DNA of 64,000 nt from Endomicrobiales bacterium (lineage in GTDB: Bacteria; Elusimicrobiota; Endomicrobiia; Endomicrobiales; CAWCFT01), in NCBI GenBank assembly GCA_963794945.1, contig CAWCFT010000001.1, positions 160,001 to 224,000 of the forward strand, given 5' to 3'. Below are positions 10,418-13,888 of this stretch, piece by piece. The notes under the pieces were generated by a model. That model ran no database searches, was not told the origin of the DNA, and was given only the letters and a program-made list of their open reading frames with translations. Positions within the stretch are counted from its first letter, which is position 1; each line of letters starts with the position of its first letter. The translations under genes were made by a program, and so were the position numbers.

Positions 10418-11138
10418 TCAGCCCGCAAGTTTTTCAAAGTACCTTGAGAGCAAACTGAAATTTCCGGAAATAAGTATTACCCCGACGATAATAAGTATTA
10501 TACCCGACGTTGTTTCTATGTAACCAAAATATTTTTTTATCACAGAGAACATACCCAGCGCCCAATTAACAAAAAGTGCTGTTAGAAGAAAAGGAATACC
10601 CATTCCCAAAAGAGTAAAGGAAAAGCAACAGCATTCCTTTGTAGATAGTTCCCTGCGCCGACGCTAGTATAAGTATAGAGGAAAGTACAGGGCCGATACA
10701 TGGAGTCCATCCTGCGGCAAAGGCAAGTCCTATTAAAAATGAGCCCAGGTAGCCGCCCGAAAATTTGCCTGCATCAAGCCTTTTTTCCGCGTATAGGAAC
10801 TTTATCCTGTACACACCGCTCAAATGAATCCCGAAAATTATTACGGCTATCCCTCCCACCCATCTTATTAAAGCTTTGTGCGTGCCGAGAAGAGCTCCGA
10901 AATAACTGGCCGATGCTCCAAGCAGAACGAAAACCGCACTGAAGCCGATCACGAAAGCCAGGGCGTTCAAAAATGTTTTGAGGAGCGCCGATCCTTCAGC
11001 TCCTTTGAGCTCTGAAACAGACACGCCAGTGATGAACGATATATATATTGGGATAAGCGGCAGGACACATGGGCTGGCGAAGGTCAAAAGGCCGGCGGCA
11101 AAACTTACTAAGTAAGGGAATTTACCAAGCGTTGTCAT
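10418..11138 (-). CDS. ccdA: Cytochrome c biogenesis / thiol-disulfide transporter CcdA (frameshift near 10610)
   Basis: SPCVLPLIP and GWTPCIGP motifs; C-terminus GMGIPFL continues in another frame. Confidence 0.88.
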
Positions 11139-11596
11139 TTTTTTAGGGCTTTTTTCATGTTTGCCGCGAAATCAGGCGCGGGGTTATAGCCGACCATCTT
11201 GTCTATGACTGTCCCATCAGGATTTATGAATACTATAGTAGGAAGGCCCTGCACACCGTATTTAGACGCGTCCTGTCCGTACTTGTCCGTGTCAACCTTA
11301 ACGCACACGAAATTCTTTGAAAGCGCAATGACCTCAGGGTCCGTATAAACATCCTTGTCAAGTTTCTTGCACCAGCCGCACCATTCCGCAAAAAAGTCAA
11401 CCATGAGCGGTTTTTTTGACGATTGGCCAAGTGCCAGACCGCCGGCTAGCGTGTAAGACCAGTTTATTGAGCCTTCCGCCGCGTTAACAGCAGCAGTTTT
11501 CTGTGTGTTTGCAGAAGCGTTTTCGGCTTTTCCTTCCCTGCAGCCGACAAGCATAACAGCGCAAAATACCGCGAACGCGAACAGTTTCATTTTCAT
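11135..11596 (-). CDS. Thioredoxin-like lipoprotein
   Basis: Lipobox LVGC, WCGWC active site, GLPT cis-Pro motif; GGAGG RBS. Confidence 0.88.
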   Translation of the reverse strand: MKMKLFAFAVFCAVMLVGCREGKAENASANTQKTAAVNAAEGSINWSYTLAGGLALGQSSKKPLMVDFFAEWCGWCKKLDKDVYTDPEVIALSKNFVCVKVDTDKYGQDASKYGVQGLPTIVFINPDGTVIDKMVGYNPAPDFAANMKKALKK

Positions 11597-11659
11597 AATT
11601 GCCTCCATCTAAGGTACCACCTATGAAAGAAAAAGTCAAGGTGACAAAAAGTATCTCCG

Positions 11660-11859
11660 CAGTAGTTTCTAACTACTGATCTGTTCTGTTAAACAAGTTC
11701 TTTGGCCGTTCGCCCGCTTTGTATCGTAAGAAGCTCCGAAAATATCCGGACTTCAGTCACCTATTGGCAGCTCTGCACTTGGCGGACTGCATGATAGAAT
11801 CGGGCGACGCCCCTCCGCTAATCAGACTTGTTGAAGCTGTCAGCCTTGCGGCGGACACT
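11660..11859 (-). ncRNA. Putative bridge/seek RNA of the IS110 element (boundaries approximate)
   Basis: Contains AACAAGTCTGAT (matches left junction) and ATAGGTGA (matches circle junction), each next to stem-loops. Confidence 0.7.
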
Positions 11860-12886
11860 TCAGGCACCATTGAGCGCGAGGGACGCCGTAGTCCGTATAT
11901 AATATGGCCGCTTATCTTTCAAAACTCGATACACAATTTTCAATAAATCTCTGGCAAGAGCCACTCGCGCCACGTTGGGCGCTTTCCGTTTGGCTATAGC
12001 TTCATACTTTTCTGTTCGTTCAACGCTGCTCTTTGAAAAATGGTGAACTGCCTCAATCAATATCCACTGTAGGTGTTTACGCCGATTCTTATTTAAAGAA
12101 CCGTGATATTCTTTGTCGGCGCTCTGGAATGTTCTCGGTGCAAGGCCTGCGTACGCGCAGAGGCGGTTAAATGTTGTAAAACGGCTAATATCGCCTATCT
12201 CGCTTTTAATAAGCAACGCACCAAAACTGCCTATCCCAGGAATACTTTCAAGATTCCGCGCGTCGGGATCACTTTCGGCTATTGCATGTAGTTGCCACCC
12301 GATACGGTTTTCACGCGCATTCAAAGCGCCTATTTGCTCAATCCAGTTTTCTGCGGCAATCCGGCACGGTTCAGATAATTTGTTCACCGCAATACCGTTC
12401 AATTGCTTCATTGAAGTATAGTCACCCGTTGACATCTGTCCATGGCGATCAAGAAGTGACTTTAACCGTGCTGTGTTCCGCGTTCGTTCACTGACAATGC
12501 TCATCCGGCAATGCAACAGTTCTTTAATAGCTCGTATCTTCTTGTTCTGGCAGCTCTACTGTAGGTAAATAGCCCTTACGGAGCACATCGGCTATAAGCC
12601 GGGCATCTATCTTGTTTGTTTTCTTGTTTCGTTTTGCAAATGCTTTCAGCTCGTACGAATTCGCAAGATACACCTTGTAAGCATATTCTTCGGCGAGATC
12701 AACGAAATAGTACCAATTGTAAGTCGTTTCAACTGCAAGTGTAAATGGTCGTGGGAGCGTTTTATAATATGATCGCAACACTTCTGGCAAATTTGCTATA
12801 CTCTGGCTGTCAATCCGTTTGCCCTGCTCGTTCGTCACGTAAAACCAAGAACGCTCTTTGTGCAAGTCTACACCAACATAATTCAT
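11860..12886 (-). pseudogene. IS110 transposase/recombinase (frameshift near 12540)
   Basis: YVGVDLHK, AVETT, KKTNKIDA; C-terminal SIPGIG...EIGDISRF...AYAGLAPRTFQSA. Confidence 0.9.
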
Positions 12887-12985
12887 GGCAACCTCCTCGT
12901 TTTGTCTTATTGCTCGATACAATAAGTTTAACAAAACTAGATGGAGGTTGCTTTCATATTATCAGACTTGTTTTTCATCTATACG

Positions 12986-13888
12986 CTATATTTTTTCAAG
13001 CATCCTGTCAATTGCTTTTTTTGCCCCTGCACTGACAGCTTCTTCAACCCTGACAACGTTTTTCATGTCTTCAAGGCACCATAGGACTTTTTCAAGGCTG
13101 TTCTTTTTCATGTTCACGCAAACCGCCCGCGCGGAAACCGGATAGAACTTCTTAGAAGGGTTCTCTTTGTTCAGCCTGTGTATAATGCCTACCTCGGTAC
13201 ACATTATGAATTCATTTTTTCCTGGAGTTTTAGCGTATTCGCACATACCGCTGGTTGAAAGGACCTTGTCGGCAAGCGCCGTTACTTCGGGCCGGCATTC
13301 GGGATGAGCCAGCACTTCGGCTTCCGGATGCGCCTGTTTAGCTACAGCGACATCATTCTGGTTTATCCGTTCGTGGACTATGCAATAACCGTCAGTAAGA
13401 ATAAGTATTTTTCCGGTCTTGGAAGCCACATATGCCCCCAGGTTCCTGTCAGGGACGAAAATTATAGTGTCTTCTTTCATTTTCCTTACTATATTTTCGG
13501 CGTTGGCGGACGTGCAGCAGATATCCGACTCAGCTTTTACGGCAGCCGATGTGTTGACGTAACAAACCACCGGCACCCCGGGGTTCTCTTTCTTTAATTG
13601 ACGCAGTTGATCGGCCGTGATCATGTCGGCCATGGGGCATCCAGCGGGTTCCGGCAGAAGAACGGTTTTATCGGGGCTCAACATGGCCGCGGTCTCGGCC
13701 ATGAAATGTACGCCGCAGAACACTATAACATCCGCCTTCGTCTCCGAGGCCCTGCCTGCGAGGTCAAGTGAATCTCCGATGAAATCGGCTATATCCTGCA
13801 CCTCGCCGGACTGGTAATTGTGTACCAGTATCACGGCGTTGCGCTTTTTCTTTAACGCGTTGATCCTTTCTGCTAAAATTTCAGTCAT
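12986..13888 (-). CDS. nadA: Quinolinate synthase A
   Basis: HNYQ, GDSL, FCGVHFMAET, GCPMAD, YVNT, CTSAN, PDRNLG, HPEC motifs. Confidence 0.97.
   Translation of the reverse strand: MTEILAERINALKKKRNAVILVHNYQSGEVQDIADFIGDSLDLAGRASETKADVIVFCGVHFMAETAAMLSPDKTVLLPEPAGCPMADMITADQLRQLKKENPGVPVVCYVNTSAAVKAESDICCTSANAENIVRKMKEDTIIFVPDRNLGAYVASKTGKILILTDGYCIVHERINQNDVAVAKQAHPEAEVLAHPECRPEVTALADKVLSTSGMCEYAKTPGKNEFIMCTEVGIIHRLNKENPSKKFYPVSARAVCVNMKKNSLEKVLWCLEDMKNVVRVEEAVSAGAKKAIDRMLEKI

Follow-up and report, generated by a model that had tools for sequence, protein, structure and literature searches.

Bridge RNA and seekRNA recombinases are under development for programmable DNA insertion, and mechanistic work on them has mostly concerned IS621. 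In IS621, the left guides of the RNA base-pair to the DNA's bottom strand and the right guides to its top strand, according to the text of PMC11208160, and the role of the catalytic serine is known from S241 of its recombinase (PMC11208158). IS1111-type members of the IS110 family carry a long non-coding region downstream of the transposase gene and a short one upstream, and encode transposases that are 330-350 aa long and have a GL-P----S(T)G motif ending in SG, TG or occasionally TA (PMC11187229, section 6). Within their seekRNAs, the match to the top strand lies 5′ of the match to the bottom strand (PMC11187229, sections 9 and 14), and co-transcription of the seekRNA with the transposase has been proposed (section 14 of the same text). 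Promoters created at the circle junction have also been described for the IS110 family (PMC11208160; PMC12288879). We analyzed a locus of this kind in an Endomicrobiales bacterium, within a stretch of 64,000 nucleotides that is called the window below. An earlier note, made from the letters alone, had read positions 11618-11859 as the non-coding RNA region that lies downstream of the transposase in an element of IS110/IS1111 type, and our results bear out this reading. Most probably, the span encodes the guide RNA of an IS1111-type element within the IS110 family. The mechanism has been known since 2024, and the locus is another IS1111-type example of it.

The element is a 1,343-bp IS110-family insertion sequence on the minus strand with an IS1111-like layout (Table 1). 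A search of the host assembly recovered five copies in the genome, namely the window copy and L002, L003, L004 and L005, and their flanks fixed the element ends at 11620 and 12962. No copy departs from the others in the RNA region, and differences between copies are confined to the flanks and the transposase gene. The dinucleotide TG, which the earlier note had proposed as the core, stands at both junctions of each copy with no target duplication beyond it, as is typical of the IS110 family. Likewise, the long non-coding stretch 3′ of the transposase gene (240 nt, from the stop at 11860 to the end at 11620) and the short one 5′ of it (76 nt, from the left end at 12962 to the start at 12886) agree with the IS1111 type, as do the arms of the subterminal inverted repeat, which lie 2 and 4 nt in from the element ends and fall within the 7-17 bp of that group. 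Two further features were seen near the ends. The interior of the left end (12938-12947) forms a perfect 10-nt inverted repeat with the right flank (11602-11611, the ribosome-binding region of a thioredoxin-like gene), of which about one is expected by chance in 1.4 kb. The opposite strand of the right end reads AAGTCAAGG-TG-AC at window positions 11633-11645, resembling the usual target AAGTCAAGCC-TG-AC and overlapping a predicted -35 box.

Table 1. Features of the element and of its predicted guide RNA (window coordinates).
Feature	Position	Strand	Remark
Whole insertion sequence	11620..12962	-	span common to five copies at 99-100% identity, diverging beyond
Core dinucleotide TG, left junction	12963..12964	-	TG at both junctions, 5/5 copies
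Core dinucleotide TG, right junction	11618..11619	-	TG at both junctions, 5/5 copies
Subterminal inverted repeat, left arm	12948..12958	.	partner of 11622-11632
Subterminal inverted repeat, right arm	11622..11632	.	11 nt, 91% complementary to 12948-12958
TAATAT, predicted -10 box	12956..12961	-	left end, junction promoter
TTGACT, predicted -35 box	11634..11639	-	right end; promoter formed only at the circle junction
Transposase gene	11860..12886	-	frameshifted here: one extra base at 12545/12546
Transposase stop codon UGA	11860..11862	-	overlaps the base of helix P2
P1 helix, 5′ arm UCCCUCGCGCU	11873..11883	-	within coding sequence of the transposase; closing helix of the target-binding loop
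Right target guide GGUGCC	11863..11868	-	last two transposase codons (Gly-Ala), 6 nt just 5′ of the stop
P2 hairpin GAAGUGUCCGC...GCUGACAGCUUC	11833..11861	-	between the target guides; 11 pairs, 7 changed on both sides, 96.4% paired
Left target guide AACAAGUC + core UG	11823..11832	-	same sense as the left flank; predicted partner: bottom strand
Invariant AUU, then P1 3′ arm AGCGGAGGGG	11810..11822	-	UGAUUAG 31/31; helix counts in text
Right donor guide candidate GAUUCUAUCA	11792..11801	-	UAUCA (11796-11792) = reverse complement of TG+ATA, left end
P4 hairpin	11767..11790	-	between the donor-matching segments; 8 pairs, 5 changed on both sides, 98.4% paired
Left donor guide candidate CAAUAGGUGA	11757..11766	-	same sense as right end ...AUAGG + core UG
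P5 hairpin GAAGUCCGG...UCGGAGCUUC	11730..11754	-	9 pairs, 4 changed on both sides, 94.6% paired

Read in the direction of the transposase, the flanks of the window copy are AACAAGTC-TG-GTACC, the core-proximal part of the left flank being AAGTC. L002, L003 and L004 are flanked by ...AAGCC-TG-ACACC and L005 by ...AAGCC-TG-ACTCC. Four of the five copies are thus inserted in AAGCC-TG-AC(A/T)CC (three in ACACC, one in ACTCC), which is site- and orientation-specific insertion of the IS110 type around a short core. Flanks of the AAGCC-TG-ACACC type also accompany the element in DNA runs X1, X3 and X5. The genome contains five unoccupied AAGCCTGACACC sites, three of them inside a repeat of ~28 bp, and a 12-mer of this kind is expected ~0.35 times by chance in 2 x 2.9 Mb. 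Therefore, the element usually targets a short intergenic repeat, and the site of the window copy is unusual. The unoccupied 12-mers lie outside the window (G000 contigs C2:125529, C2:130213, C5:4612, C9:112599 and C15:89177); the shared repeat reads TTAGTTCAAYWAGTA-AAGCCTGACACC and is often found immediately upstream of genes, and more GCCTGACAYC motifs occur 40-60 nt upstream of some of the unoccupied sites. Minus-strand genes border the window copy on either side, nadA (12986-13888) and the thioredoxin-like gene (11135-11608). The latter has its GGAGG ribosome-binding site ~12 nt downstream of the insertion (window 11595-11620), and because the element separates this gene from the same-strand nadA, a polar effect or read-out transcription is possible. 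A search of the host genome for the empty allele of the window site, as the pattern AAGTCTGGTACC, gave no match, and among the contigs of four sequencing runs none bridges the window site and none shows a circle junction.

The transposase gene is interrupted in the window copy, and a DNA-run contig is one base shorter at 12545. Intact genes, encoding 341 aa, are present in L003 and L005, and L002 and L004 contain other indels. The two open reading frame pieces of the window copy (12524-12934 and 11860-12516) match the Pfam domains DEDD_Tnp_IS110 (PF01548, E 1.7e-14) and Transposase_20 (PF02371, E 1.9e-19), the combination expected of an IS110 transposase. An intact copy scored 221.8 bits against the NCBIfam model NF033542, 'IS110 family RNA-guided transposase' (cut-off 140), and its protein matched the ISCro4 transposase (E 1.9e-16) and IS621 (8wt6, E 3.7e-13) in the Protein Data Bank. 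The serine is conserved, the S of ...PRTFQSA... being aligned with that of ...PRRYESG... in the ISCro4 transposase (9t56). Within the motif GLAPRTFQSA, it is followed by A, not G; the relatives L006 and L007 also have SA, and L008 has SG. Residues 124-252 of the intact transposase at L003:1743-2768 additionally gave a weak, sub-threshold match to NF052498, 'TIGR-Tas system RNA-guided endonuclease' (31 bits, cut-off 100).

Among species-representative genomes, the closest proteins are 44-57% identical and come from Candidatus Scalindua assemblies and one gammaproteobacterial assembly. The plasmid-borne relatives found share at most 36% protein identity, and no named IS was matched. None of 103 other genomes of the host's order contained a relative at E up to 1e-40, no viral contig carried the conserved RNA motif, and an Rfam scan of 11000-13500 on both strands returned no match at E up to 1. 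Metagenomes were searched with a conserved 18-nt stretch of the RNA, which yielded 96 stretches, 80 of which were examined. A complete target module could be parsed in 34, L021 being excluded because its parse was false. A further ~20 retained just a 3′ portion of the RNA together with the right end, and ~20 consisted of coding DNA without relation to the element. The covariation set consisted of the 34 metagenome loci, two relatives from assembled genomes and the five genome copies. The RNA alignment comprised 31 of 33 distinct sequences, L033 and L084 being omitted for their long insertions. Since related elements are not independent, the shuffle tests reported below overstate significance.

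Several of the metagenome loci are rearranged. In approximately ten independent places, only a 3′ portion of the guide RNA is found with the right end, and no IS110 transposase lies upstream (L023, L029, L032, L052, L085; L035, L064, L087; L042, L051, L067; L056, L080; L073, L083; L048, L071, L075, L076, L090), and other genes, such as toxin-antitoxin-like open reading frames, take the place of the transposase. At four of these places (L035, L064 and L087; L073 and L083; L075; the L023 group), homology begins at or just inside UUAUCAUGC. These pieces may have been left by deletions, or may have arisen from recombination at internal look-alike sites. In Candidatus Scalindua (L006:2545-2640), the left target guide and the 3′ arm of P1 were deleted between direct repeats GCUUCC(C)GAG, and the close relative L007 retains both. 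In L068, the 19-nt right end (TGACTATTATCTCAATAGG-TG...) is present in three tandem copies 3′ of the RNA motif. In L050, a truncated target module is directly preceded by an intact target-like TCAAGGTC-TG-ACCCT, which lies ~60-80 nt upstream of the left target guide.

Helices were called from RNAalifold and from pair counting on the 31-sequence alignment. P1 (11883-11873 with 11819-11810) has 10 pairs, seven of which changed on both sides, and 97.4% of its cells are paired across the 31 sequences; the counts for the remaining helices are given in Table 1. The stem GAAGUCCGG/UCGGAGCUUC of the earlier note was located at 11754-11746 and 11739-11730 and corresponds to P5. Taken over all 45 pairs of the structure, 94.8% of cells are paired as compared to 80.6% after shuffling, and the covariation score is 0.448 vs. 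0.172 shuffled (0 of 500) and at most 0.087 when the partners were slid. The window sequence folded by itself gives the same helices (-72.4 kcal/mol, z -2.3). A possible helix between UAUC and GAUA (11725-11722) has its pairs formed in 31, 31, 29 and 31 of 31 sequences, and three pairs that would extend it are weak. Three guide-guide pairs proposed by RNAalifold (columns 32-34 with 84-86) and a UCAU/GUGA helix showed no changes on both sides and were rejected. Handshake guides of the IS621 type were sought in the RNA and none was identified.

The two target guides form the two sides of the internal loop enclosed by P1 and P2. The left one was reached in the earlier note through a 12-mer, ATCAGACTTGTT, found at 11821-11832 and again across the left junction at 12961-12972; this and the note's other strings were all located where it had placed them. 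The 12-mer is the longest exact direct repeat within 11600-12990, and at up to one mismatch it has only two matches in the 64-kb window vs. 0.31 expected, with at least two obtained in one of 100 shuffles. As a guide match, ten of its letters stand: AACAAGUC-UG is identical to the left flank and core of the window copy (8 nt plus UG). The last two letters, AU, instead belong to UGAUUAG, which is invariant in all 31 aligned sequences and is part of the scaffold. Every parsed relative has a hairpin ending in CUUC, followed by 7-8 variable nucleotides and then by this invariant heptamer. Examples of left guides with their flanks are GGAGU-UG with GGGAGT-TG, AGAUU-UG with AAGACT-TG, and AGGUG-UG with AAGGTG-TG.

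The left guide covaries with the flank. In 24 unique pairs, the Watson-Crick sum over seven positions is 113 vs. 79.4 after shuffling (0 of 20,000), and grouping by the 17 distinct guides leaves 79.2 vs. 56.6, again with 0 of 20,000 shuffles. Plain mutual information between RNA columns and flank positions was dominated by clade structure and uninformative, and it was replaced by a scan that compares the pairing of each column with an element's own flank and with those of other elements. The scan placed the left flank best at column 79 (difference 1.02, next 0.51). Positions -1 to -6 comprise 144 cells, with Watson-Crick pairs in 104, wobble-compatible transitions in 24, incompatible transitions in three and transversions in 13, of which 12 fall at position -6. 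RNA-DNA pairing with the bottom strand predicts such an asymmetry of 24 to 3 between the transitions, whereas identity at the DNA level does not. In most members, pairing involves five flank bases and the core, and in the window copy eight and the core. The earlier note's proposal that AACAAGUC-UG guides the choice of the left target flank is therefore upheld by the covariation, the column scan and the wobble asymmetry. The note had also expected other copies to share the ends and to have flanks that match the guide, and this is what was seen: the ends are the same, the flanks pair with the guide with one U.G wobble, and guide and flank covary across relatives. Within this genome, the 12-mer shows no covariation, all five copies carrying the same RNA region.

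For the right target guide, the earlier note had pointed to TATCA at 11796-11792, and this part of its reading did not hold. The pentamer is invariant across relatives whatever the right flank, its reverse complement, TG+ATA, is found at the left end of the element itself, and it may pair in a helix with GAUA. The scan over all columns placed the right flank best at column 33 (difference 0.71, next 0.46), which corresponds to GGUGCC at 11868-11863, outside the span of the note. This hexamer is complementary to the top strand of the core G and the right flank, and its pairing with G-GTACC of the window copy contains a single T.G wobble; the pairing takes in five flank bases and just one base of the core. 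Over 13 unique pairs, the right guide and flank scored 51 vs. 40.7 shuffled (8 of 20,000); grouped by the six distinct guides the count was 102 of 20,000, and guides are few here and constraint on the coding sequence could mimic conservation. Examples are GGGGUC with G-ACCCC in most relatives, AGGGUC with ACCCT, AGGGAA with TCCCT, and GGUGCC with GCAC in L055. The antisense guide at 11868-11863 lies 5′ of the same-sense guide at 11832-11823, which is the IS1111 order. Another candidate for the right target guide, GUGUC at 11858-11854, was ruled out by its location inside helix P2. The coding sequence contains both GGUGCC and the 5′ arm of P1. A guide located inside the coding sequence was not found stated in the text of PMC11187229, PMC11208160 or the ISPpu9 paper PMC12288879; figures or supplements of the first two may show one, and the stop codon is marked in Fig. 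3 of PMC11187229.

Two segments on either side of P4 match the ends of the element. The earlier note had drawn attention to ATAGGTGA downstream of TATCA, which is present on the minus strand at 11764-11757, and to its match with the predicted circle junction; AUAGGUGA indeed equals the right end plus the core. The slightly longer AAUAGGUGA (11765-11757) behaves as a candidate left donor guide. Among all columns of the alignment, CAAUAGGUGA is the best same-sense match to the right end and core (6.36 of 8). Comparing its variable base with that of the right end over 35 distinct loci gave A/A in 29, A/G in three, G/G in three and G/A in none; the base was counted as tracking the end in 35 of 35. 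Similarly, no other place in the alignment gives as good an antisense match to the core and left end as 11801-11792 (6.07 of 8). Here the left end is matched exactly over 9 nt in eight, 7 nt in six and fewer than 6 nt in nine of 23 rows, and the window element is among the last, with only the 5-nt UAUCA kept. The left end is near-invariant (ATAATATG in 19 of 21), and no covariation was found for the right donor segment: the sole clade with a changed left end (L031, L081) lacks a compensating change. UAUCA is a plausible right donor guide, matched to the left end by conservation only. An 8-nt stretch antisense to the left end, CAUAUUAU (11906-11899), is absent from the closest relatives L040 and L045 and was put down to chance.

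The ends of the element are probably also constrained by a promoter predicted at the circle junction. When the ends are joined, TTGACT, a 17-nt spacer, the TG of the core, an A and TAATAT would form a sigma-70-type promoter with an extended -10 element. The spacer measures 17 nt in all 17 distinct family junctions, and TTGAC is present in 15 of them. No sigma-70-like promoter was found just upstream of the RNA, and the whole element contains two such sites vs. 2.3 expected. The lack of a promoter directly upstream fits co-transcription with the transposase. In the metatranscriptome library X9, a 194-nt contig covers 11629-11821 with no differences; it is a weak hint of the RNA, as it does not show strand or ends and DNA carry-over is possible. 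The transposase body and the flanking genes are uncovered in X9, which makes the library uninformative about them.

The donor part of this picture has a competitor, in which the RNA is a seekRNA for the target only and the protein recognizes the ends through the subterminal inverted repeats. AAUAGGUGA and UAUCA would then be by-products of other constraints, with the junction promoter fixing the ends and UAUC forming a helix with GAUA. Several of the observations above speak for this explanation. A near-invariant left end makes covariation undetectable, and the variant clade changed it without compensation; the ends also supply the -35 and -10 boxes, at a constant spacing; the UAUC/GAUA pairs are formed wherever both letters are present; and end recognition in IS1111 elements may differ (PMC11187229, sections 6 and 14). 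The variable base of AAU(A/G)GG nevertheless tracks the right end, since G in the segment goes with G in the end in three of three cases, and never with A among the 35. Moreover, the donor segments are the best places in the whole RNA for the respective ends, and they flank a covarying hairpin with the same geometry as in the target loop. On balance, we consider a target-only RNA unlikely.

Explanations that dispense with a guide altogether fare worse. The internal copies of flank and core could act at the DNA level, as pseudo-sites, protein sites or scars of recombination, yet the mismatches with the left flank favor wobble-compatible over incompatible transitions, the segments occupy loops between helices that are kept by compensatory changes, and the two guides differ in sense, only one being antisense, as in characterized bridge RNAs. 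Such mimicry has in its favor that DNA coding for a guide copies the target half-site by construction, and that the truncated, transposase-less remnants in metagenomes, which begin at or near the UUAUCA segment, could reflect recombination between look-alike sites; we regard it as very improbable all the same. A chance repeat in an ordinary 3′ untranslated region or terminator of the transposase has a negligible probability. Although 12-mers do recur, as the one window shuffle in 100 with at least two matches illustrates, chance is excluded by the covariation across relatives and by the position scan.

Under the preferred reading of a guide RNA with a target and a donor module, the RNA would begin in the last ~25 nt of the transposase gene on the minus strand. 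P1 and hairpin P2 would enclose an internal loop that serves as the target-binding loop, with the order of the guides reversed relative to IS621. A second module, made of P4 and P5, would present CAAUAGGUGA, which matches the right end and core, and probably UAUCA as well, which matches the core and left end, so that the two donor segments together would hold the circle junction CATAGG-TG-ATAATATG. The ends, the core and the helices are, like the covariation, direct findings. We infer from them that the RNA is made, is bound by the 341-aa DEDD/Ser recombinase and directs its insertion.

The fit between guides and sites differs among the five copies. The guides of the relative L049, AAUAAGCC-UG and CGUGUC, give perfect pairing with AAGCC-TG-ACAC, the common target in this genome. 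The element's own guides, AAGUC and GGUGCC, each differ at one base from a matching guide, which on the right would read GGUGUC; against the common target, the left guide has a U.G wobble and the right guide a C/A mismatch at +1. Internal AAGUC-UG equals the flank of the window copy and has one U opposite a bottom-strand G at the other four copies, which also have the +1 mismatch. The window site, with Watson-Crick pairing on the left and one wobble on the right, is a better fit than the AAGCC-TG-ACACC sites. This pattern is consistent with guides that have drifted from AAGCC-TG-ACACC, that is, with natural reprogramming in progress, the order of events being one that we infer from the sequences. 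The window copy may be the one insertion that fits the drifted guides, and the four copies at older-type sites may now be left with a wobble and a mismatch. It is conceivable, at somewhat less than even probability in our judgment, that two features are linked here, namely a guide RNA partly written in the transposase gene and a genome caught during natural reprogramming. If so, a change in target specificity would also alter the C-terminus of the protein, and vice versa.

Beyond providing another example, the locus and its relatives add a clean natural set of guides and targets, together with the overlap of a guide and a helix arm with coding sequence. The 24 unique left and 13 unique right guide-flank pairs of the clade show which positions pair, and that G.U and G.T wobbles are widely tolerated. 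They also provide a layout for an IS1111-type RNA, including a guide that overlaps the region of the stop codon. For annotation, this means that a guide RNA may begin inside the transposase gene, and that a search restricted to non-coding sequence would then miss one guide, as happened in the earlier note.

The closest described systems are the IS1111 seekRNA elements ISEc11, ISPa11 and ISKpn4. As these are presented in the text of PMC11187229, they have in common with our element the downstream non-coding region, a transposase of ~340 aa, subterminal inverted repeats, a top-strand segment located 5′ with matches overlapping at the insertion point, and a repeated sequence as target, entered in a single orientation. 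At ~75 nt from P1 to P1, the target module described here is similar in size to their short seekRNA of 82-96 nt, and SA follows GL-P---- where theirs have SG or TG. In our element, the top-strand guide and one helix arm also lie in coding sequence, and it is known from sequence alone. With IS621, going by the text of PMC11208160 and PMC11208158, the element shares a bispecific RNA with a target loop and a donor module, left guides that are same-sense and read the bottom strand, right guides that are antisense and read the top strand, a core contained within the guides, a DEDD and Ser recombinase, and a promoter rebuilt at the circle junction. In contrast to IS621, the RNA is situated at the 3′ end of the element rather than the 5′ end, the order of the guides within each module is reversed, the core is TG instead of CT, and the right target guide covers one core base. 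The donor segments surround a three-way junction in the single-sequence fold, where IS621 has a simple internal loop. Finally, ISPpu9 and ISPpu10 of Pseudomonas putida (text of PMC12288879; 10.64898/2026.03.19.712850) likewise have short repeated intergenic targets and element modules that are found detached from the transposase gene. Their targets are REP sequences and their bridge RNA is upstream; the detached pieces of our family are 3′ guide-RNA fragments with the right end.
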